From Eledone cirrhosa (Eukaryota), in assembly GCA_964016885.1 (NCBI GenBank), contig OZ024749.1, forward strand, positions 16,430,001-16,494,000: a stretch of DNA of 64,000 bases, in the 5' to 3' direction. The position numbers and the translations under genes are program-made. Below the pieces are notes generated by a model, which was given only the letters and a program-made list of their open reading frames with translations, ran no database searches and had not been told where the DNA came from. Position 1 is the first letter of the stretch. Every line of letters begins with the position of its first letter. Below are positions 20,263-56,554 of the stretch, piece by piece.

Positions 20263-20590
20263 ATAATGAAATGACAGGAGGCTGGATTTGTGTAAATCCT
20301 TGAAAGGTTTATTATACTATGATCATTTCAATGACCGGGTTCCGTATGATATCACCGGATTCATACGGAACCCGGTCATTGAAATGATCATCGTATAATA
20401 AACCTTTCAAGGATTTACACAAATCCAGCCTCCTGTCATTTCATTATAATATTTAACTCCGTAATAGCACCACGAACTACAAAAACAAAGACGGTTGAAC
20501 TGCTTTACGTTGAGTACTCTCTATATTATTACATTGCGATTGACCATACGGAATTGACCAGCTCTATCCAGTGGTGAACCTCAAACCTGA
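20261..20590 (+). mobile_element. Fold-back PLE pLTR insert (about 88-bp arms) truncated inside its hammerhead
   Basis: 20264-20349 is the reverse complement of 20361-20446. GAAA-tgatca-TC is present. Homologous to 19027-19070. Confidence 0.75.
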
Positions 20591-20783
20591 ATATATATAT
20601 TATATATATATATATATTAGATATATATATTATATATTATATATATATATATTATATATATATATATATTATATATATATATTATATGTATATACATTAT
20701 ATATATATATTATATATTATATATATATATTATATATTATATATTATATATATGTATATATATATTATATATATATATTATAT

Positions 20784-20814
<31 letters not shown>

Positions 20815-20834
20815 ATATGTGTGTGCGTGCGTGC

Positions 20835-21995
20835 GATATCGTAAACGATATCAATATAGTTATAAGAACACCCCCACTAGAGAGCACTAACAAGTTTGAT
20901 TTAGAACGTAGCACGATGGAAAGCATCCAGCAGATAGCTAATTCCATACACCAGAGTATAACTGTAACTATCGACTTCCCTTCCAAACACCCTAACAATA
21001 GACTACCTGTATTAGACACAGAACTCTGGATTAACACTATAGACGAGAGAGCCCAAATTCTCCACTCACACTATGCTAAACCCATGGCCTCCAAATACCT
21101 GATACTCAAAAATTCAGCAATGTCCAGTAGTGCTAAGTTTAATATTCTGATCGCAGATTTGGTACGAGTGATGAAGAATGTGTCCCGCATGTGCGACCCA
21201 ACAGAAATGGAAAGACACATCCAACACTTCATCAACCGCATGCAGTTCTCTGGCTACAACCAAAGAGACAGAGTTAGAGTATACGAAGGAGCCATGGAGA
21301 AGTATAAGACCCTCATAGAACTGGACATGAAAGGAATTTGCCCATTATACAGGAGCAAATCATGGAATAGCTTAGATAGGGCTAGACATAAGATAGGGAA
21401 AGCCACCTCATGGTACGACAACCAGAGATACCAGAGTGTCATGTTTGTGGACGCTACCCCCGGAGGGAAATTAGCTAACCAGTGTAGAAAGGCCCTGAGA
21501 AAGACCCACTTAAAAATTAAGGTGGTAGAAAAGCCAGGAACCACCATAAAATCCCTGATCAGCAAAACCTACCCTTTTAAGAAAACCCACTATACCAATA
21601 GGAAGTGTATCATATGTAAGGTAAACCCCCGGATAAACTGTAAAACTAGAAACGTAGTCTATAGCATAAGATGTACAGAGGGTACTTGCAGAAACATGAC
21701 AACAACATACATAGGTGAGACAGCTCGTAGCATAGGTGAAAGGATAGACCAACACTGGGGGGAACTAAAAGGACGAAAAAACGGGTCAGTACTATACGAA
21801 CATGCTAGACAACACCATGACGGTAACATAGACAACATAGAAATTAGAATAATATCTAAACATAGAAATGACCCAGCAGATAGGCAAATCAGAGAGGCCA
21901 GTGAAATAGAAATTAGAAGGCCAAGATTAAACAGAAAGAATGAATGGAATAACAACAACACCCAAACAAACAACACTGACCTAAGAGAAGTATAA
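20835..21995 (+). CDS. PLE RT C-terminus plus GIY-YIG endonuclease (5'-truncated; upstream YI part of the listed ORF is microsatellite)
   Basis: Unique part of ORF 20571-21995 is uninterrupted. Confidence 0.85.
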   Translation, partial: DIVNDINIVIRTPPLESTNKFDLERSTMESIQQIANSIHQSITVTIDFPSKHPNNRLPVLDTELWINTIDERAQILHSHYAKPMASKYLILKNSAMSSSAKFNILIADLVRVMKNVSRMCDPTEMERHIQHFINRMQFSGYNQRDRVRVYEGAMEKYKTLIELDMKGICPLYRSKSWNSLDRARHKIGKATSWYDNQRYQSVMFVDATPGGKLANQCRKALRKTHLKIKVVEKPGTTIKSLISKTYPFKKTHYTNRKCIICKVNPRINCKTRNVVYSIRCTEGTCRNMTTTYIGETARSIGERIDQHWGELKGRKNGSVLYEHARQHHDGNIDNIEIRIISKHRNDPADRQIREASEIEIRRPRLNRKNEWNNNNTQTNNTDLREV

Positions 21996-25111: not shown

Positions 25112-26272
25112 GAACCTAGTCATGGGATTCCATGAACAACAAATATACAGTCAGTCCCTTCTCTTATTTGGAGACTCTTTCCACACACACCTCAAAGCCA
25201 ATTGGAAAAGATATCTAGACGACCGCTTTATCCTATGGCAAGAAGACATGAACTCACTTACTACGTTTAAAAACATGATAAACAACATAGATAATAACAT
25301 ACAATTCACAATGGAATCCAATCCTAAGGAATTAGCCTTCTTGGATATTCTCATCTCTGTAATAGACGGGAAATTAGATACAGATATATTCTATAAACCC
25401 ACAGATTCCAAGCAATACCTCTTTTTCACATCAAGTCACCCAAAACATACAAAACTTAACATTCCTTACAATTTGGCAAACGTATATGTACCATAGTATC
25501 AGATCCACCTAAACGGGAGCAAAGACTAAAGGAACTAAAAGACACCCTTATCTTAAGAGCCTTTCCACTTGAAATAATCAACAATGGAATAGACAGGGCA
25601 AAACACCTAAATCCCCATCAACTTAACAATCCAAAACAGAAAACCACACTCAACACCCTGCCATATGTATCCACTTTCAACCCCAGAAATACCGAAATGT
25701 TTGATCACCTACACAAAAACCTCCCCATCCTACTTAAAGATGTAAAAATGAAGTCTATTCTTGAAACACACAAGATCCTTAAAAGTAAAAGACAACCCAA
25801 ATCACTTAAACGCATTCTCACTGGACCAAATATACCCAAACCAATCCTCAACCCTACAGTTACCAAATGTGGTAGAACAAACTGTGGAACGTGCCTCTAC
25901 CTCACTGAAGGACAAACATTTACATTCAAAGATGGCCAAACATTTACAGTAAAAAACAATTTCACCTGCAACTCGGAGAACTTGATTTACGCAATAACTT
26001 GCGGTGGGTGCAAACACAACTACATAGGACAGACGGGCACCTCATTACGCAAAAGAATGACCATCCACCGCCAACAAATCCGGGACGCTAACACAAGAAA
26101 AATCCCCTTGAGCAGCCATATTGCGAACTGCGCAGGAATGACACTACCCAACTTTAAAATCTTCCCCTTCTACAAGTGCTCAGATTCGTTCACACAACAA
26201 CAAAGAATAAACAAAGAAAATCTATTCCTTAACAAATTTAAACCAAAACTAAACGGGTTATCACCCCAATAG
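25112..26272 (+). pseudogene. 5'-truncated tandem copy of the PLE RT/GIY-YIG ORF
   Basis: Nearly identical to 29989-31149, with a 1-bp deletion near 25475 and YLDDC changed to YLDDR. Confidence 0.92.
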
Positions 26273-27637: not shown

Positions 27638-28903
27638 ATGGCACTGGAACAAGACAACACCACTTCAAACTCCAATATCAATGAGGAAATCCTGAAAATC
27701 CTAAAAGAGATAAATGGAAAACTCACCATTCTGACAAAAAAACAGGATATACCCCAAACCACCACACCGACTGACAACCAAATTTATTTAAACGTTCAAA
27801 ACGTATGCAACTCCATCGAAAAACTTATGAATACCAACACAGAACAAACGACATTGCTCCATATCAAAAACCAAATGGGACACCTCTGGAAAAAACATCT
27901 AAAAACCAGAAAATTCACTTTCTGGAATATGATAAAAAACCTCAACAAAGCTGGAATTTACCAAAAATGGATTAACTCAACACCGATAGTTTTACCACGT
28001 AAATTCCAAATAAAGCATATTACAAACGAACCTGAACCAGAAAGAAAACTCCGTGAACAAATGTCACTCAACAGGATAAACATGGAAATAGAACTCCTAA
28101 AATTAAGGGCCACCTCAAACGAGCAAGAGTATAAGGATACTGATAAAAATATGGAGGAAGAATGCACTAAAAAGGCCGAGGGAACAACCCTACAAAATTT
28201 AATCAAATCGTGGAAACAGGACTGCGAGAATGCAGAAACTATTTCCCTTAAACGGTGGGAAAAATCCGAAAACTGGTTCCTCAAATATGAAGAAGACTTT
28301 AAAAGGACGCACCAAACAGGTAACCCCTTTATAAAGCATTTGAACATAACAAGAACTACAACAGACACATTTACACCACCAAACCCAACACACACTAACC
28401 ACAGGCACATCCCCCACCAACACAAACCAAATACGGCCAACTACACCAAAAGAAACACACCCAACCACCACAACACAGGTTTCCGTAGAAATGCCCCCTA
28501 CATAAACCAACGACGAAATAACATAGATCCAACTCACAACACACACACCACATTCCTCAGAAGAAATCCACCCAGGCCACTTGAAATCACAACAGAACTT
28601 ACCCACAACCACACCAGACATCACCCTCAATCCAACAAAAGACAACCCCCCAGCCTCAACACTCTGTACCACAGAAATAACGCACCCAGACCACATGAAC
28701 CAACAACAGAACCCTTGCTCATCAACAACCACAACACATACCACCCCCACCATCACATTCACCCTCATGAAACAACAAGCTACAGACCCACACGCAACAG
28801 ACCAACAAAATATAATCACACACAAAACTACATTCCTTTTTTAGGGAAAAGCCTGAAATACCAGGATACTCGATGGCCCCCCCTCAGGAGAAACCAAAAA
28901 TAA
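27638..28903 (+). CDS. PLE ORF1: predicted coiled-coil N-half and disordered H/P/R/T/N-rich C-half (421 aa)
   Basis: Open from ATG to stop. Homologous to 52639-53757 ([33 protein letters not shown]). Confidence 0.85.
   Translation: MALEQDNTTSNSNINEEILKILKEINGKLTILTKKQDIPQTTTPTDNQIYLNVQNVCNSIEKLMNTNTEQTTLLHIKNQMGHLWKKHLKTRKFTFWNMIKNLNKAGIYQKWINSTPIVLPRKFQIKHITNEPEPERKLREQMSLNRINMEIELLKLRATSNEQEYKDTDKNMEEECTKKAEGTTLQNLIKSWKQDCENAETISLKRWEKSENWFLKYEEDFKRTHQTGNPFIKHLNITRTTTDTFTPPNPTHTNHRHIPHQHKPNTANYTKRNTPNHHNTGFRRNAPYINQRRNNIDPTHNTHTTFLRRNPPRPLEITTELTHNHTRHHPQSNKRQPPSLNTLYHRNNAPRPHEPTTEPLLINNHNTYHPHHHIHPHETTSYRPTRNRPTKYNHTQNYIPFLGKSLKYQDTRWPPLRRNQK
28837..28843 (+). promoter_or_regulatory. Putative -1 frameshift slippery site T_TTT_TTA
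   Basis: In the ORF1 frame (cct ttt tta ggg). The -1 frame is open from 28816 into the RT ORF. Confidence 0.7.
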
Positions 28904-31149
28904 TCAACCTCTCAAAGACACCTCTAACCAACACACAAATCAACATTTTAAGTAAGGGCCTGAAATTTACACCTACACCACGTAAACCAAACTTCCCCGA
29001 AATGAAGGATGACATCATGGAATACTGCCGAAAGCTGCGACTAACGGAATTCTTCCACAACGACACCAACACTGAAGACGAATCACTGGTTAGAAATAAA
29101 AGCAATTTCTGCCCACAAAAGGGAAGAAATAAAGCACTGGACACGTACTGCGAACACATCACCAACTTTCCCTATGAAACAATTACAAATAAACACACGA
29201 AATCAAACCTATCTACACACGAATGGGAAGAATTATTCACACTTAGAAACAACCCTGAGATAACTATCAAAGAAGCCGATAAAGGCAGTACTGTTGTGAT
29301 TATGAATACGGACTACTATAGGACCCTCGCACTTAACATTTTAGAAAACAACACATACTATGAAAAAACAGAAAACTACAAACACACCAAAACAATGGGG
29401 AACCTTTTGACCTTACTGAATAAATACCGCAACAGCTTAACCACAAAAGAGTTTAACTATATAAGCCACTTCAAATGCAATACAAGCTCTTTTTACGGCT
29501 TACCGAAACTTCACAAATGTAAACCCATAAACGATGCATGTGACACCTCAACCAACAATTACATTGAACTAACACCACCAGAAGACCTAAAACTCAGGCC
29601 AATTATAGCAGGCCCTACATGTGAAACCCACAGACTTAGCAACTTTCTGGACATCCTACTGAAACCCTTTCTACAACATATACAGAGCTACATACGAGAT
29701 GACCTTGACATGCTGAAACACCTCCCTAAAACAGTAAGTGCAAATACAATTCTTGTCTCCTTTGACGTAATAAACCTCTACACAAACATACCTCACAACT
29801 ATGGAATAACAGCAGTCCAATACTGGCTTAACACACACCCATCAGAAATACCGACACGCATCAACACAGATTTTATCACTGACGGACTCCGCTTTATCCT
29901 ACAAAATAACTACTTCACATTCAATGGTTCAACATACAGACAAGTATCAGGTACGGCAATGGGCACGAAAGTAGCACCCACATATGCCAACCTAGTCATG
30001 GGATTCCATGAACAACAAATATACAGTCAGTCCCTTCTCTTATTTGGAGACTCTTTCCACACACACCTCAAAGCCAATTGGAAAAGATATCTAGACGACT
30101 GCTTTATCCTATGGCAAGAAGACATGAACTCACTTACTACGTTTAAAAACATGATAAACAACATAGATAATAACATACAATTCACAATGGAATCCAATCC
30201 TAAGGAATTAGCCTTCTTGGATATTCTCATCTCTGTAATAGACGGGAAATTAGATACAGATATATTCTATAAACCCACAGATTCCAAGCAATACCTCTTT
30301 TTCACATCAAGTCACCCAAAACATACAAAACTTAACATTCCTTACAATTTGGCCAAACGTATATGTACCATAGTATCAGATCCACCTAAACGGGAGCAAA
30401 GACTAAAGGAACTAAAAGACACCCTTATCTTAAGAGCCTTTCCACTTGAAATAATCAACAATGGAATAGACAGGGCAAAACACCTAAATCCCCATCAACT
30501 TAACAATCCAAAACAGAAAACCACACTCAACACCCTGCCATATGTATCCACTTTCAACCCCAGAAATACCGAAATGTTTGATCACCTACACAAAAACCTC
30601 CCCATCCTACTTAAAGATGTAAAAATGAAGTCTATTCTTGAAACACACAAGATCCTTAAAAGTAAAAGACAACCCAAATCACTTAAACGCATTCTCACTG
30701 GACCAAATATACCCAAACCAATCCTCAACCCTACAGTTACCAAATGTGGTAGAACAAACTGTGGAACGTGCCTCTACCTCACTGAAGGACAAACATTTAC
30801 ATTCAAAGATGGCCAAACATTTACAGTAAAAAACAATTTCACCTGCAACTCGGAGAACTTGATTTACGCAATAACTTGCGGTGGGTGCAAACACAACTAC
30901 ATAGGACAGACGGGCACCTCATTACGCAAAAGAATGACCATCCACCGCCAACAAATCCGGGACGCTAACACAAGAAAAATCCCCTTGAGCAGCCATATTG
31001 CGAACTGCGCAGGAATGACACTACCCAACTTTAAAATCTTCCCCTTCTACAAGTGCTCAGATTCGTTCACACAACAACAAAGAATAAACAAAGAAAATCT
31101 ATTCCTTAACAAATTTAAACCAAAACTAAACGGGTTATCACCCCAATAG
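28873..31149 (+). CDS. PLE reverse transcriptase plus GIY-YIG endonuclease (758 aa from ATG)
   Basis: ADKGS, FYGLPKLHK, LRPII, SFDVINLYTNI, GTAMGT, RYLDD, KCGRTNCGTC, LIYAITC..C...YIGQT. No disablements. Confidence 0.97.
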   Translation: MAPPQEKPKIINLSKTPLTNTQINILSKGLKFTPTPRKPNFPEMKDDIMEYCRKLRLTEFFHNDTNTEDESLVRNKSNFCPQKGRNKALDTYCEHITNFPYETITNKHTKSNLSTHEWEELFTLRNNPEITIKEADKGSTVVIMNTDYYRTLALNILENNTYYEKTENYKHTKTMGNLLTLLNKYRNSLTTKEFNYISHFKCNTSSFYGLPKLHKCKPINDACDTSTNNYIELTPPEDLKLRPIIAGPTCETHRLSNFLDILLKPFLQHIQSYIRDDLDMLKHLPKTVSANTILVSFDVINLYTNIPHNYGITAVQYWLNTHPSEIPTRINTDFITDGLRFILQNNYFTFNGSTYRQVSGTAMGTKVAPTYANLVMGFHEQQIYSQSLLLFGDSFHTHLKANWKRYLDDCFILWQEDMNSLTTFKNMINNIDNNIQFTMESNPKELAFLDILISVIDGKLDTDIFYKPTDSKQYLFFTSSHPKHTKLNIPYNLAKRICTIVSDPPKREQRLKELKDTLILRAFPLEIINNGIDRAKHLNPHQLNNPKQKTTLNTLPYVSTFNPRNTEMFDHLHKNLPILLKDVKMKSILETHKILKSKRQPKSLKRILTGPNIPKPILNPTVTKCGRTNCGTCLYLTEGQTFTFKDGQTFTVKNNFTCNSENLIYAITCGGCKHNYIGQTGTSLRKRMTIHRQQIRDANTRKIPLSSHIANCAGMTLPNFKIFPFYKCSDSFTQQQRINKENLFLNKFKPKLNGLSPQ

Positions 31150-43493: not shown

Positions 43494-46040
43494 CTAACAG
43501 TGCTGCGATCGAATGTGACTTTTTAGCCCAGCCAATGATCCAAAATGTCTTGCACAGAGTCGGCAACCAAAACATTTACTGGGAATAGTCGGCTGTGGTT
43601 GGAGTTCGTGTACTTTTGCATGTCGCTTGAGTCCTCCTGCTGATTTACATTCTCTACCACATGTTTGGCAAGCATGATGAGTAGCATCTCCAACAGCAGC
43701 CTGGTAGTCAACCACTGGTCTTACTTTATGACTGCGAAGATGACTTTCGAGTCCAGCTTTGCTTAGGCAGAGTCTCGCACAGACGCTGCATGTCAGAAAC
43801 ATAGGAGGACCCTCGCCGTCTGGAAGTGCAACAGCAATACCCTTCCTCACGTCCCGCTTTACTTTCTCGTGTGCGATTCGAGATGCCTCAAAGGCAACTT
43901 TTCCCTCATATACAGTCTTTCTCCATTTATTACGATCAGCAGCAATATTTTCCCATGTATCAGCAGAGATGTTAGCGTCTTTCAGAGAGGCCTTCAAGGA
44001 ATCCTTATACCTCTTTTTTGGTTTATGTGGCGGTCGTTTTCCTTTAACCAACTCTCCATAGAAGAGTTGTTTTGGTATTCTAGAATCCTTCATCCTGGCA
44101 AGGTGACCACTCCAACGGAGTCGCTGCTTAAGCACAAGAGCTTCTATACTGTCACACATAGAGCTTTCCAAAATCTCGACATCACTGATGTGGTCCCTCC
44201 AGCGAACGCCATGTATCCGTCTGAGACACATCTGATGGAAACGCTCCAATTGCTTAAGGTGGCGTCGATATGTGACCCAGGTCTCGCAGGCATAAAGAAG
44301 ACAAGAGAGTACACATGCCCTGTACACCTTTACCTTTGTCCTCCTGCATATGTCTCGCCGACCCCAGAGTCGCCTTTCTAGCTTTCCGAAAGCATCACTT
44401 GCTTTCCTAATCCTAAGTGAGATTTCACTGTCAAGGTTGCCGTATCGATTGACAGTGCTTCCCAGGTAGACAAACTGATCAACCACTCCAAGTCGTTTGC
44501 CATACACATAGATGTTTGGTTCAGTGTACTGCCTACCAGGTGCAGGTTGGTACATGACGACGGTTTTCTTGAGACTGACAGTCAAACCCAGGGCAGTGCA
44601 AGCGTCAGAAAATACATTCAAAATGTGCTGCATATCACTCTCTGTGTGCGCTACAAGATCGCAATCATCTGCATACAAGAGGTCTCTTATGACTGATGTA
44701 AATACTTTTGTCTTCGCAGCAAAGCGCCTGATGTTAAATATGCTGCCTGAGGTTCGATATCGGATGTAAACACCATGCTCGCAATTCCCGAATGCAATAC
44801 AGAAAACCATTGCAAAGTATATGGCAAACAGGGTCGGTGCTGGAATATCCCCCTGTTTCACTCCATTTTTTACTGAGATAGGCTCCGACATGTTACCTCC
44901 GACATTAACCCAAGCCTTCATGTCGTCATGGAAAGACCTAACTAAAGCAAGGAACTTATCAGGGCAACCAAGTTTCTGGAGAACCTTCCATAATGCATCT
45001 CTGTTGACAGTATCGAAAGCCTTTGTCAGATCGACAAAAACCTGATACAGATCCAAGCCCTGTTCAATGCACTTCTCCTGGAGCTGTCTAGCTGAGAAGA
45101 TCATATCAGTAGTGCCGCGTCCAACACGAAAACCAGATTGACTTTCAGGAAGGACACAATCTGCAATGTGTGTCAGCAGACGGTCCAGAAGCACCCTACA
45201 TAAAACTTTCCCCACGACAGAAAGCAATGATATACCTCTGTAGTTCCCACAATCATTCCTGTTACCCTTTCCCTTGTACAAGACCACCATTACTGCATCT
45301 CTCCAGTCCTCAGGCACGGATTCATTAGCCCATATCCCTCCAAACAGAGAGTGAAGATGTTGCAGGAGTCTCTCACCACCATATTGTAGGAGCTCAGCAT
45401 GTATGCCATCCATACCTGGAGATCTTCCACTGTTCAGCTTCGAAATAGCCACTGCAACCTCCACAAGTGTCGGAGGCTCTGCGAGAGCTACTTTCACAGG
45501 ACTTTCCGGAATGAGATTGAGGAAATCTTCACTGACGACAGACGGCTGATTCAAAAGATCATCAAAGTGCTCCCGCCACCTTCGTAGAATTCCCTGTGAG
45601 TCACGAAGAAGTTCTTTGCCATCCCTGCTGCGAATCGGTGTCACCAGAGAAGAAGACGGTCCATAAACCTCACGCAAGAGACTGTACAACAGCTTTGTGT
45701 TATTGCAATCAGACGCAGTTTGTATCTCACCAGCCTTCTCACTCCACCACTGATCCTTCATCTGAGAAAGACTCCGCCTAACACGTGATTTTACATCCCT
45801 GAGCTCCTCATGCAACGTATTCCTCTCCTGTGGTCTTGCCGTCAAGTAGCGTGACAGAGCGCGCCTCTTATCAGCCAACAAGTCATCTATATGCACATCT
45901 TTCTCATTAAACCAGTCCTGATGTTTTCTCTGCACCAATCCCAGAACACGTCTGCCTACATCATAAACCGACTTTTTAAGGGTCGGCCAATCCTCACCAA
46001 GATCTGCAGCCTGCATCTCTTCTTCCAATGTCCTCTTCAC
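43494..46040 (-). CDS. RTE reverse transcriptase plus three C-terminal C2H2 fingers (frame 2, separated from frame 1 by one extra A in an A7 run)
   Basis: [36 protein letters not shown]; CxxC...HxxxH three times. Confidence 0.95.
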
Positions 46041-47041
46041 ATTTTTTTATCCTTAAGACGAGCAGCATTCAATCTTTTGGGCAGGGTAACACCAGGAGCC
46101 CGGATTTTACGTTTGGTGATTAGATTCACTTTTGCGCGTACCAGGCGGTGGTCCGTCCAGCACTCAGCTCCACGAAGAACACGAACACACCGCACATCCT
46201 GTCTGTCACGCATCCTGACTAGGACGTAGTCCAAAAGATGCCATTCCTTAGATGCAGGATGCATCCATGTGGTCTTGAATTTGTTCTTTTGTTGGAACAT
46301 GGTGCTGGTAACACACAGATCCAGCTCCTCACACATCTGCAGCAAGAGCATACCATTGCTGTTACACTTTCCCACCCCATGCCTTCCGATTACATTCCAT
46401 GTGTTAAAATCCCTACCCACTCTAGCATTAAAGTCACCAAGCACGATGACTTTGTCTGCCTGAGGGATATTTCTTAAAACACCTTTCAAGGCATGGTAAA
46501 AGGACAGTTTTTCTTCATCGACAGAATTCATAGTTGGAGCATACACACTCACCAGGGTAGCATATCTTCCCTTGTCCAGCGGAACTCTCATGGACATAAG
46601 ACGCTCACTAATCCCCACTGGGAATTCTTCCAATTTATTCACCAGTACAGTCTTAACAGCAAATCCTACCCCAGCCTCTCTTCTGGTTCCTTCATCTCTT
46701 CCTTTCCAGAAGAATGTATATTCTCCACAAAATTCCGTAAGATGACCATCTCCAGCTAACCTCGTCTCAGACAAAGCCACGATGTCAAGATCGTAACGTC
46801 GAAGCTCCTTCGCAACAAGAGCGGTCCTTCGTTCAGGACGCTCCAAAGAATCCCTGTCAAGCAGCGTCCGTACGTTCCAGCAGCCAAGACTAAATGCCCT
46901 GTTTGGCTCTATTACAATGGCACGATGACGGGCGGGCCCAGGTTGTGATAACTTGGGGCCCCTGCCCTTATTGCCAATGATCTTTTTTGTTCCAGAACCC
47001 AAATTGGCAATTATCTCGTTTACATTGTTCTGGAACATCAT
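46037..47041 (-). CDS. RTE apurinic endonuclease part (frame 1)
   Basis: WNVRTL, ALSETR, VYAPT, LGDFNARVG, LDYVL, TDHRLV. Confidence 0.92.
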   Translation of the reverse strand: MMFQNNVNEIIANLGSGTKKIIGNKGRGPKLSQPGPARHRAIVIEPNRAFSLGCWNVRTLLDRDSLERPERRTALVAKELRRYDLDIVALSETRLAGDGHLTEFCGEYTFFWKGRDEGTRREAGVGFAVKTVLVNKLEEFPVGISERLMSMRVPLDKGRYATLVSVYAPTMNSVDEEKLSFYHALKGVLRNIPQADKVIVLGDFNARVGRDFNTWNVIGRHGVGKCNSNGMLLLQMCEELDLCVTSTMFQQKNKFKTTWMHPASKEWHLLDYVLVRMRDRQDVRCVRVLRGAECWTDHRLVRAKVNLITKRKIRAPGVTLPKRLNAARLKDKKM

Positions 47042-47051
47042 TGAATTGGGG

Positions 47052-47084
<33 letters not shown>

Positions 47085-47089
47085 TAATA

Positions 47090-47124
<35 letters not shown>

Positions 47125-52526: not shown

Positions 52527-52638
52527 GTGTGTATATATATATGTATATATATATATATGTGTATATATATATATGTATATATATATGTGTATATATATAT
52601 ATGTGTATATATATATATATATATATACTATCCAAACT

Positions 52639-53757
52639 ATGTTCACTACTACCAACCCAGGAAAAACCAACGAAGAACCATGTGAGATTGATTCATACAA
52701 AATGAAAATTCGAACAATTCCAAAATGGAACAAATCCCTCAGAGACAGAAAGTTCTCATTCTGGAAGATGATACAAAATCACAACAAAGCGGAGATATAT
52801 GAAAAATGGCTTAACTCAACCCCTCTAACTCTCCCCCGTAAAATACAAATAAAGTCCATTCCAAATGAACCCGAACCTCAAAGACACCTTAGGGAAAGAA
52901 TGGCATTGGAAAAAATGAAGACAGAAATTGAACTTCTTAAATTGAGGGCCCAGACAAATGAGGAAAAAATCAAAACCATCGATGAAGAGATCCTCCTGGA
53001 AATCAACAATAAAACTGAAGGCCCCAAGGTAGAGAAGATCTCTAAATTATGGAAAGGGGACTGCAACAGAGAAGAACTGAAATCCCTTCAACGCTGGGAA
53101 AAAAGTACCGCATGGTTCCTACTCTATGAATCGACTTTTCAAACGGATTACACCTCCAATAACCCGTTCATAAAAATAGGAAATCCCATAACCGAACCGC
53201 ACAACAACTTCGCAAACCCCCAAGCCACTAACAAACGAAGAAGGAAGCACCACACCGAAGATGAACTTCCCAACCTCGCTACCATAAGAAGGAACAGAAA
53301 CCCTAGAAATCATCTCCCCCAGAATGACATTTACAACTTTCCCCCTTCAAGGAGACACTATACCAAATCACTCAACTACTACGCGGATGCCCCATCGTCA
53401 AACATAGGGAAAAGATACCACCACCATGATAGATGTAACAACTTCCCCGCTTCAAGAGGACAGCAAGGTAATTTCCATTTTCTCAACTCTTGCTCCCACA
53501 ATACACAACAAACCCACACCACACGATACAACCAACAACGTAGGCCACTTATAACACCACAATCCAACATGGCACATAGAAACACACACCCATACTCGCA
53601 ATACAGGAACACCCCATTCAATCTACAACCACCAACCCGAACCACATTTTACGACAAGGAATATAACAAACACAGGAGACCACTTAACATCAGCAGACAA
53701 CCCCTCTACCCCAACCATTTTTTAGATACAGCACACAGATACAGGCAAACAAAATAA
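52639..53757 (+). CDS. PLE ORF1 homolog (upstream YI part of the listed ORF is microsatellite; true start uncertain)
   Basis: [32 protein letters not shown]...EIELLKLRA...RWEKS..WF..YE..F...NPFIK. Confidence 0.82.
53718..53724 (+). promoter_or_regulatory. Putative -1 frameshift slippery site T_TTT_TTA
   Basis: In the ORF1 frame (cat ttt tta gat). The -1 frame reads RYSTQIQ...KIINL...LLSKGLKFTPTP with no ATG before 53895. Confidence 0.75.
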
Positions 53758-56041
53758 CACAAGACAGGGAGGAGAAACCGAGAGTAATAAAAATTATCAA
53801 TCTTACTAGTGCAGAACCAACACCCAACCTTATCAACTTACTCTCCAAAGGTCTTAAATTCACACCGACCCCACTACGTCCTAACTACTATGAAATGAAG
53901 GAAGACATCACAGACTTCTGTAGAAAGTTACGACTCAGTGAAGAACTATTCGACCAGTACAATGAGGATGAATCATTATCCAGAAATAGAAGCAATTACA
54001 CCCCATCAAAAGGTAGAAATAAAATCCTGGACGAATTCTGTGAACACATCACAAACTTCCCTTACCAACACTTGCACAGACAAAAAACACAAGCCAAACC
54101 TCAACAAGAAAGAATGGGAAGAATTAAATTGATTAAAAACCGACAGAACCATTACAATTAAAGAGGCTGATAAAAGGAGTACAGTAGTCCTAATGGAGAC
54201 AGAATTCTATATCAACTTAGCGCTCTCCACTTTGGAAAACGAAACATACTACGAAAAGGCTGAACACTACAATCAACAGAAAATTATGAGAAACCTAAAA
54301 ACTCTGATCAACCAATACAAAGAAGGACTCACTACAAGGAATTCAGCTTCATCACAGACTTCACAAGTAAATCCAGCCTTTCTACGGTATCCCTAAAGTA
54401 CATAAAAGCGAATTAATAAGTAAGGCATGCAAGGAAGCCACAGAGATAGTCATGAATGTCCCCTCACCCAATGATCTCAAATTAAGACCTATAATAGCAG
54501 GCCCCGCTTGCGAAACCCACCGCCTTAGCAACTTCATTGATACCCTTCTCAAGCCTTTTCTCAGACACATCAAAAGCTACATAAGGGACGACCTAGATAT
54601 GCTCAATCACCTCCCTAATATGCCCCTTTCTGAACAAACCCTACTAGTGACGTTCGATGTAGTCAACCTATACTCCAACATCCCCCACAACCTAGGAATA
54701 GAAGCTATCCAATTCTGGCTGGATAATTACCACAATGAACTCCCACAACGCATCAAAAAAGAATTCGTGATAGAGGGACTCAAATTTATTTTGGAGAACA
54801 ATTACTTCGTTTTCAATAACAAACCCTACAGACAGAAATCTGGGACCGCTATGGGAACGAAAACAGCCCCCACTTATGCCAACCTAGTCATGGGGTACCT
54901 GGAAATCACCCTCTACACTAAAGTCTTAAACAAATTTGGAAACACTCTCCACTTACACATAGAAAGGAACTGGAAGCGATATCTAGATGACTGCTTCATC
55001 CTTTGGCACGAAAACATCGAGAAACTTAAAGAGTTTCACACCATTATAAATGGGCTCAACACGAATATTAACTTCACGATGGAATACAGACACCAACAAC
55101 TCCCCTTCCTCGACATCCTCATTAAGATCCATAACAAAAAAATAGAAACAGACATATACTACAAGCCTACAGACTCCAAGCAATATGTTCCTTTCAACTC
55201 TTGCCACCCTAGACACGTTAAAATTAATATTCCCTACAACTTAGCCAAGAGAATCTGTAATATAGTCTCCAATAAAAACACCTGCTACTTACGGCTACAA
55301 GAACTAAAGGACACACTCATAGGCAGGGACTACCCTGCATCACTAATTGACAATGGAATCCAACGTGCCCTAAAACTCAGTACCCAGGACCTTAGACACC
55401 CTAAATTAAATCAACCGAAACTAAAAGCTCTTCCATACATCTCCACACACAACCCCCTCAACAATGAGGCCTTTGACACCATCCTCCAGAACATCCCTGT
55501 GTTGAAAAAGGACCATAGAATGAACCAAATCCTACGAACACACGATATCATAAAGAGCAAAAGACAATCTAAGTCAATGAAAAACATCCTAACACATGCC
55601 AAAGTACTGCCAACCACAACAACGAAACCCACAGTAAAAAAATGCGATAGACCCAACTGAGGCATATGCATCAACCTAATAGAGGGTTCGGAATTCTATT
55701 TCAAAGAAGGACAACGTTTTATAATAAAACACAATTTCACATGCGCATCAGAAAATTTAATATATGTATTAACTTGCTCAGGTTGTCGAGAACAATACAT
55801 AGGCCAGACCAAAAACAGCCTCCGCCAACGCATGACTGTCCATAGATCCCAAATTAAAATACGGGAATACAGGAAAATACCACTGAGTGAACACATTGAT
55901 ACCTGTGCCGCCCCAAATCATCCCAACTTCAGAATCTTTCCCCTCTACAAATTTAAAGATAATGCCACCCACACCCAGTGCATCAGCAAGGAATCTTACT
56001 TTATTAACAAATACGGACCCCGTCTAAACACTTCTCCCTAA
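53724..56041 (+). pseudogene. PLE RT plus GIY-YIG ORF with two frameshifts (near 54085 and 54335) and an in-frame TGA (55658)
   Basis: Fragments 53895-54161, 54193-54396, 54452-55660 and 55832-56041 align to the 758-aa protein. Confidence 0.92.
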
Positions 56042-56499
56042 GACGAGCCCACAACATACACAGGTCAACATACATACCTACATCAGCATACATCTCTATC
56101 CACATATAAACACAATGAGATACGTAAACACACATGTTCTATGGTGCAACACAAATATACACAAATTTGCATACTTTTGATGTCTGTAGATATAAACGTG
56201 CCGACACACACACATACATAAACGCACACATGTATTGCACACTGATGGGCACATACATATTTGTACACAAGTATTCCAATACGGCAAGGCCTAATGGATT
56301 CCCCTTGTAGTACGTACAATCTGGACACTCACACACACCTTGGTATTATGCCAATACTATATATCATTTCACACCTTTTATTATTAAGGTTTTTGATGTT
56401 CTATTGAGAGAATCGTTTTTACTGAAAATATCGAATAATGTACACCATTTTACCAGGAATAAATACTGGTCCACCCACACACACACACACACACATTCT

Positions 56500-56554
<55 letters not shown>

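Follow-up and report, generated by a model that had tools for sequence, protein, structure and literature searches.

The elements and their ORF1/ORF2 junction

The window analyzed here, a 64,000-nucleotide stretch of the Eledone cirrhosa genome (GenBank assembly GCA_964016885.1, contig OZ024749.1, positions 16,430,001 to 16,494,000, forward strand), carries two Penelope-like elements (PLEs) in which a first open reading frame (ORF1) overlaps, in the -1 arrangement, a second one (ORF2) that encodes a reverse transcriptase (RT). The junction between these two frames is the subject of this report; coordinates refer to the plus strand unless stated otherwise. The element that we focused on, PLE2 (52625-57278; 3' end approximate), is a 5'-truncated copy of a young two-ORF element. 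Its insertion site is a (TA)n/(TG)n tract; it is truncated at 52625 and, from there on, is 96 to 97% identical to full-length copies (L279 to L282). The remnant of its ORF1 (52627-53757), with a low-complexity tail rich in N, R, H, and Q, corresponds to a protein of 436 amino acids (aa) in the full-length copies. ORF2, in the -1 frame (53718-56041), encodes an N-terminal block, the RT, a Cys linker, and a GIY-YIG domain. The copy in the window is dead, with three 1-nucleotide (nt) indels (near 54082, 54334, and 54379) and a TGA (55658), all in ORF2; in copy L280, ORF2 is open for 769 aa and includes both RT and GIY-YIG. The other element, referred to as the first PLE, has an ORF1 of 421 aa (27638-28903; 42% identity to that of PLE2) and an intact ORF2 of 777 codons (28816-31149) with an RT, a C-x4-C-x2-C linker, and a GIY-YIG-type end.

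In the phase of ORF1, the PLE2 junction reads CAT TTT TTA GAT and thus contains the heptamer T TTT TTA (53718-53724), the predicted site of a -1 shift, which matches the canonical X XXY YYZ pattern in zero-frame phase and lies inside the ORF overlap. As the initial annotation had pointed out, the same heptamer is present in the first PLE (28837-28843). That annotation also had both ORF1 products ending in Phe-Leu (FL); they run on, for 10 codons in PLE2 and for 19 in the first PLE. The PLE2 spacer (53725-53754) is unstructured and open in both the ORF1 and the -1 frame, and the ORF1 stop, a TAA (53755-53757), lies 33 nt from the UUA codon when counted between the first bases of the two. Upstream, the overlap is bounded by a TAA in the -1 frame (53685-53687), separated from the heptamer by 10 sense codons (about 11 had been stated).

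The conserved KIINL...KGLKFTPTP block of PLE2 (53790-53873; KIINL at 53790 and KGLKFTPTP at 53847) lies in the -1 frame, 5' of any ATG; the first ATG in that frame (53895-53897) follows both motifs, and four fuller copies have the same downstream ATG. The earlier argument that this block could not otherwise be translated from an AUG therefore holds for the PLE2 family. It fails for the first PLE, in which an in-frame ATG (28873) is found 12 codons past the heptamer and before KIINL. Among the best 30 of 1,532 candidate places for PLE2 in the genome, a sample biased toward likeness, the heptamer was kept in 29 and none had an ATG ahead of the motif; for the first PLE, all 20 top copies retained the heptamer. 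An in-frame ATG upstream or a fused ORF, either of which would have spoken against frameshifting, was sought in family copies, and neither was present. Since copies of these young families keep both the heptamer and the split, the split is a family state and not the outcome of decay.

The impression that PLE2 has no strong structure downstream of the heptamer was borne out: folding 3' of the site gave z scores of -1.1 to +0.6, and the canonical stem-loop or pseudoknot 5 to 9 nt downstream was not found. In the 14 related families described below, 13 never fell below a z score of -1.8 (the exception, L055, reached -3.4), and a simple pseudoknot scan of the same families found nothing above shuffles. 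On the sequence evidence, a programmed -1 frameshift is the best reading of the PLE2 junction, and we hold it with high confidence. The missing stimulator points to the fixed distance between heptamer and stop as the more interesting feature.

Conservation of the heptamer in host families and foreign relatives

To survey the 3.0-Gb host genome, we used three patterns for the GLKFTPTP motif, which are blind to the heptamer; together with seven fetched places, these yielded 84 loci. TTTTTTA was present at the expected place in 27 of 37 loci of family F3 (23 in phase), 17 of 22 of family F4 (12 in phase), 10 of 13 of family F5 (9 in phase), and 8 of the remaining 12 (2 in phase). The misses that we inspected were mostly old copies, truncated or with indels. 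A parallel survey of foreign contigs produced 119 loci, 64 of which reached the RT N terminus; in 24 of these, ORF2 was overlapped in the -1 arrangement by an ORF lying upstream and spanning 90 codons or more, and 16 of the 24 had a phased heptamer, either T TTT TTR (7 loci) or G GGT TTT (9 loci, with L109 and L110 being duplicates). The other eight comprised four with an ATG 3 to 22 codons from the ORF2 opening and four that are unexplained or decayed. No relatives were found among viral contigs.

In a quick RT tree (52 rows), all T TTT TTR elements except L140 fell into one 13-row clade (Shimodaira-Hasegawa-like approximate likelihood ratio test [SH-aLRT] value of 99). The 14 clade members for which DNA was at hand, i.e., seven host families and seven foreign contigs, all contained a phased T TTT TTR, with six invariant T's and A (12 members) or G (2 members) as the seventh base, while identity across the flanks was 0.30 upstream and 0.35 downstream. 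Other Phe-Leu pairs in ORF2 of the same elements were written as T TTT TTR in only 2 of 38 cases. Between the heptamer and the ORF1 stop, the -1 frame contained no stops in 231 codons, compared to 36 in the 420 codons just upstream, and in L055 the whole overlap measures 13 nt, with the heptamer inside. Nominal P values overstate the case, since the 14 members are related. The initial annotation had seen independent support for selected frameshifting in the two window elements; a selected -1 shift is indeed the best reading, but the two do not represent independent origins, since both belong to one RT clade. Judged by this pattern of conservation, the junction is real and selected, and the T TTT TTR heptamer is a trait of the clade that has been retained through deep divergence.

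Foreign loci L126 to L169 were animal PLEs in assemblies labeled as bacterial metagenome-assembled genomes, presumably through contamination by host DNA. Protein databases likewise name such PLEs as GIY-YIG nucleases of symbionts, and several close RT relatives are filed under bivalve-symbiont labels.

Could the split instead come from an RNA polymerase that slips on the T6 run and inserts an extra U, or from a single ORF that has decayed or been misassembled? Individual copies whose run is longer or shorter by one T do exist (L233; P0128 and P0143 look like further examples), and some distant PLEs consist of one long ORF (L098 and L099). However, the split is seen in foreign contigs and in two young families (29 of 30 copies in one and 20 of 20 in the other), a six-base run is short for polymerase slippage, the seventh base is restricted to A or G, and a separate group of elements uses G GGT TTT. 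We therefore regard this explanation as very improbable.

Equally improbable is the idea that UUUUUUAG serves as a 3' splice acceptor and that ORF2 is translated from spliced RNA. PLEs can carry introns, according to the accessible part of PMC8557442, and TTA followed by G, as an acceptor would require, is allowed at 11 of 14 DNA junctions and in up to 52 of 76 proteins (see below). The AG is, however, missing at the site in F4, whose junction reads T TTT TTA ACG (although 7 nt farther on there is a CAG in that phase), as well as in L065 and L126 (TTTTTTG T), and it is excluded in 17 of 76 proteins because the next codon starts with U or C. Moreover, in an acceptor there would be no need for a phase lock to ORF1 or for a run of exactly six T's, uninterrupted by C, in 14 of 14 members. 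Contigs from four sequencing runs, which are only guessed to derive from RNA and represent relatives of about 88% identity, were colinear across the site, with no splice joint; we did not count them as evidence.

A somewhat less remote alternative, which we nevertheless consider highly unlikely, is that ORF2 is reached by termination-reinitiation, leaky scanning, or a non-AUG start, with the T-rich motif acting as a tethering signal or being incidental. An in-frame ATG, GTG, or CTG is found 9 to 12 codons past the site in 7 of the 14 families, and AUG-independent initiation of ORF2 is discussed for mammalian long interspersed nuclear elements (LINEs) in the part of PMC5009743 available to us. 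A group including L070, L073, L079, and L088 has an ATG near the ORF2 start and lacks the heptamer. On the other hand, PLE2, F4, F5, L055, and L126 have no ATG, CTG, GTG, ACG, or TTG between the site and IINL, the phase lock to ORF1 persists over stop distances of 1 to 40 codons, and the -1 frame is open from the heptamer on, not from the stop. A conserved near-cognate start (NTG G, 9 to 12 codons past the site) was also considered as a general rule and rejected, as five families lack one.

Distance between the heptamer and the ORF1 stop

A profile search with ORF1 returned 974 clusters at 50% identity, and the best 150, together with further hits, gave 151 proteins. As a test set, we used the 87 proteins of at least 330 aa, nearly all of which are representatives of 50%-identity clusters, and set aside 64 shorter, probably partial ones. 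FL occurred within the last 60 aa in 76 of the 87, compared to 8.9 in shuffles and 7 and 13 in upstream windows. The residue preceding FL always has an NNT codon and is never K, E, Q, M, or W, residues that make up 19% of the tails; this fits the X XXY YYZ requirement. After removal of 14 hits that were aligned over the FL columns, FL remained in 63 of 73 proteins, with the stop at 10 codons in 18. The 64 short proteins contained FL in 24 cases, of which 4 had the stop at 10 codons and 2 at 2 to 9.

Measured between FL and the stop of ORF1, the distance was exactly 10 codons in 22 of the 76 homologues, 1 codon in 7, 7 codons in 1, and 11 to 40 codons in 46 (4 of these at 11); distances of 2 to 6, 8, and 9 codons did not occur, which leaves a single case in the range of 2 to 9. 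Seven control dipeptides were found 0 to 2 times at 10 codons and showed no comparable peak. Among elements with DNA, the stop is located at 10 codons in PLE2, F5, L057, and L065. Over their final 10 residues, the 22 ten-codon homologues share 9.8% identity, and the ten-codon state requires 9 changes on an ORF1 tree with long branches. In addition, a soft bump was visible at 21 to 23 codons, a candidate position for a second queued ribosome that we do not claim as such. In seven proteins (P0121, P0152, P0154, P0240, P0246, P0257, and P0261) and in L055, ORF1 ends exactly one residue past FL, and L055, a member of this one-codon subclade, is the element with the 3' hairpin (z score of -3.4).

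With UUU and UUA in the P and A sites, the stop of PLE2 is 33 nt ahead. In yeast, 5'P disome signals 30 and 33 nt behind the terminating ribosome (-47 and -50 versus -17), the second of these offsets being equal to the PLE2 distance, are described in the accessible portion of PMC7685019, and in Escherichia coli reporters, a ribosome stalled at a stop codon raises the frequency of -1 slips by the trailing ribosome, with an optimum at 9 codons (PMC6815119, in the part available). These distances suggest the following course of events. Most ribosomes would terminate at the ORF1 stop and release the ORF1 protein. While a leading ribosome terminates there (in PLE2, at 53755-53757), a trailing one would queue behind it, 10 codons upstream, and, being hindered while translocating over the heptamer, might slip into the RT frame. 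A minority would thus slip back by one base with UUU and UUA in the P and A sites, yielding an ORF1-RT-endonuclease fusion of about 1,200 aa, and the slipping fraction would be expected to rise with ribosome load and with slow termination. As a whole, a frameshift on U UUU UUA that is stimulated by a queue behind a ribosome terminating 10 codons farther on is the account that we moderately favor; granted the frameshift, stimulation by the queue is, on our analysis, somewhat more likely than not. That in the large clade as such, with its 974 ORF1 clusters at 50% identity, a natural -1 signal is stimulated by another ribosome appears about equally likely to be true or false. If the ORF1 stop is indeed held exactly one disome length from U UUU UUA, RT output would be governed by the traffic of ribosomes and the speed at which they terminate.

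The strongest competitor, less probable in our estimation yet deserving serious consideration, is a programmed -1 frameshift without a queue, relying on low basal slippage, slow decoding of UUA, a protein factor, or the nascent peptide, with the 10-codon distance being inherited or kept for some other reason, such as a required length of the ORF1 C-terminal tail. All evidence regarding the heptamer counts equally for this explanation. The stop is not at 10 codons in 54 of 76 homologues, and the ten-codon cases are clustered on the phylogeny. In close pairs, the 30 nt past the site are 0.83 to 0.87 conserved, compared to 0.60 to 0.70 for the ORF1 tail, conservation that might stem from a cis-acting element or from dual coding. 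What speaks against it is that the peak is one codon wide while the tail sequence is random, and that the linker between the heptamer and IINL ranges from 8 to 68 codons across the 14 families, from which we conclude that lengths are otherwise free to change.

A number of observations weigh against the queue or against frameshifting as such. The stop is found at 11 to 40 codons (or 7, in one case) in 47 of 76 homologues and at 1 codon in 7; since it lies elsewhere in 54 of 76, and at 19 codons in the first PLE, a queue at 10 codons cannot be the only stimulator. The queue model does not account for the scarcity of stops at 2 to 9 codons, and the E. coli optimum, in the part of the source available, is 9 codons from A site to A site (range, 8 to 10), versus 11 here. 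Furthermore, 19 of the 22 ten-codon cases are located in one weakly supported 34-row branch (SH-aLRT value of 83) and thus share ancestry. As for the slippery site, the heptamer of the 87 proteins was deduced from amino acids; 52 of 76 homologues continue with a codon starting with G, creating the acceptor-like UUUUUUAG string; PLE1, F1b, and F6 carry an in-frame ATG after the site; and in L058, inside the clade, the sequence is A AAA AAC, read from a short contig with only 157 nt of upstream DNA.

Classification and known systems

PLE2 encodes an RT of the PLE type (Pfam RVT_1 match; 1,626 homologues share the domain set) plus, at the C terminus, a GIY-YIG endonuclease with a Cys/His motif (PF01541; E value of 5.6e-8). 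Its 3' terminal repeat region, or pseudo-long terminal repeat (pLTR; 56361-57278, limits approximate), is of the kind known from endonuclease-containing (EN+) PLEs and occurs in both orientations: direct in L280 and L282 and inverted in L281. A further copy, L283 (G000:C1:21871000-21880999; family F4), forms a 9.2-kb, near-perfect (98.5%) inverted tandem, arranged head to head. A CX2-5CxxC linker precedes GIY-YIG, as seen from the C-x4-C-x2-C of the first PLE (in the PLE2 copy in the window, the TGA replaces the second Cys); this linker is common to Neptune, Nematis, and Naiad and therefore not exclusive to Neptune. With published supplement rows compared by eye only, we classify the two-ORF element as a probable Neptune-like Penelope retrotransposon. 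Athena and Terminon elements, which lack the endonuclease and are telomere associated, do not match, as GIY-YIG is present and the copies of this young family (top matches 98% identical) are scattered over many contigs. No hammerhead ribozyme was detected in the pLTR with either Rfam or a core pattern, descriptors that atypical variants may escape; such variants are known from PLEs, according to the available part of PMC4209133. ORF1 had no match in PDB or the Atlas, and its only Pfam match was a marginal one to DUF4292, in 1 of 12 ORF1 proteins tested.

Canonical EN+ PLEs are described as single-ORF elements in the part of Craig et al. (2021; PMC8557442) available to us, whereas PLE2, in its full-length copies as well as in its relatives, has two overlapping ORFs. 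The T TTT TTR (U6A) clade has an ORF1 of 350 to 470 aa that belongs to no known family, a -1 overlap, and, in the element studied here, no detected hammerhead. The legend to Fig. 1 of the same article and of its preprint does mention PLEs in which a frameshift, accompanied by a pseudoknot, sets ORF1 apart; these resemble PLE2 in that a frameshift joins ORF1 to the PLE RT that follows it, and differ in that PLE2 has an endonuclease, is not telomeric, and has a fixed stop distance, with no pseudoknot or stem found. Frameshifting at ORF1 is therefore known for some PLEs, and a -1 frameshift junction is very probable in the EN+, Neptune-like clade as well. The pseudoknot-containing PLEs are presumably Athena/Terminon.

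HIV-1 has a 3' stem-loop at its frameshift site; none was found in PLE2. As in HIV-1, the first PLE continues with GGG after the heptamer. The U UUU UUA of gag-pol is identical to that of PLE2, and the logic of fusing a structural ORF to an RT is shared (PMC5009743, which does not mention Penelope in the part available). The closest parallel for the spacing is the engineered E. coli collision frameshift (Smith et al., 2019; PMC6815119), in which, as far as the accessible text goes, a heptamer is likewise placed one ribosome length before a stop, with no RNA stimulator. That construct is synthetic and bacterial, with an optimum of 9 codons from A site to A site, whereas the PLE2 arrangement is natural and eukaryotic, spans 11 codons by the same measure, and is deduced from conservation alone. 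Proximity of a stop to the slippery site is known to affect -1 shifting, and a similar situation is found in the one-codon subclade (7 of 76) and in the G GGT TTT group (0 to 2 codons); the known effect, however, acts at the distance of the same ribosome, not one footprint away as proposed here. In the literature searched, which leaves subscription journals and Repbase Reports outside, we found no slippery site in EN+ PLEs and, for a stop-spaced collision signal (subscription journals again being outside), only the engineered bacterial construct and no natural example.

Other junctions in PLEs and in neighboring LINEs

A second group of two-ORF PLEs, from one record series (L105 to L125), uses G GGT TTT/C, followed by the ORF1 stop 0 to 2 codons later (L105, L108, L109, L116, L118, L120, L123, and L125). 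About 9 nt downstream, these elements share a bulged stem that is conserved, with pairing in 77% of cells (versus 14 to 46% in slid controls) and modest covariation (13 of 500 shuffles). L112 and L133 have the heptamer of this group and distant stops. Since the second group combines G GGT TTT with a 3' stem, frameshift-type junctions appear to recur in EN+ PLEs; ORF1 homology between this group and the T TTT TTR clade was not detectable. A third group (L070, L073, L076, L079, L080, L082, L088, and L092) has, upstream, a long ORF whose frame varies, an ATG near the ORF2 opening, and no heptamer, and is possibly coupled by reinitiation.

The window contains two further PLE-like fragments (20544-21995 and 25113-26034), one of another type with a C-x2-C-x7-C linker and one about 64% identical to PLE2. 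On the minus strand, an unrelated LINE with apurinic/apyrimidinic endonuclease (APE) and RT domains (57995-62088) also shows a -1 overlap of ORF1 and ORF2, with T TTT TTA G in phase at 60979-60973, a second phased site (A AAA AAC), and a first ORF2 ATG located 81 codons into the endonuclease domain. The site was kept in 20 of the 25 top copies (of 3,038 candidates), 34 codons separate it from the stop, and a weak pseudoknot outscored each of 40 shuffles; from its sequence, -1 frameshifting is possible in this element. In another LINE on the minus strand (43494-47122), which we take to be RTE-like, the junction of two frames falls in a run of A's near 46040 and looks like a 1-nt lesion.

Implications

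In databases, ORF2 homologues were called with the conserved N terminus cut off in 63 of 120 cases, since the ORF1 family with its frameshift junction is hidden; the architecture of EN+ PLEs would have to be revised to include both. Textbook -1 signals consist of a slippery site and an RNA or protein roadblock. If the queue model is true, a heptamer with a stop 10 codons on would constitute a third class of -1 signal and a naturally evolved, eukaryotic case of collision-programmed frameshifting, in which the dose of RT would depend on ribosome load and not on an RNA fold. The surprising part is the spacing of 10 codons, one codon wide, which makes collision-stimulated frameshifting directly testable, and the clade offers dozens of natural sequences with which to do so in eukaryotes.

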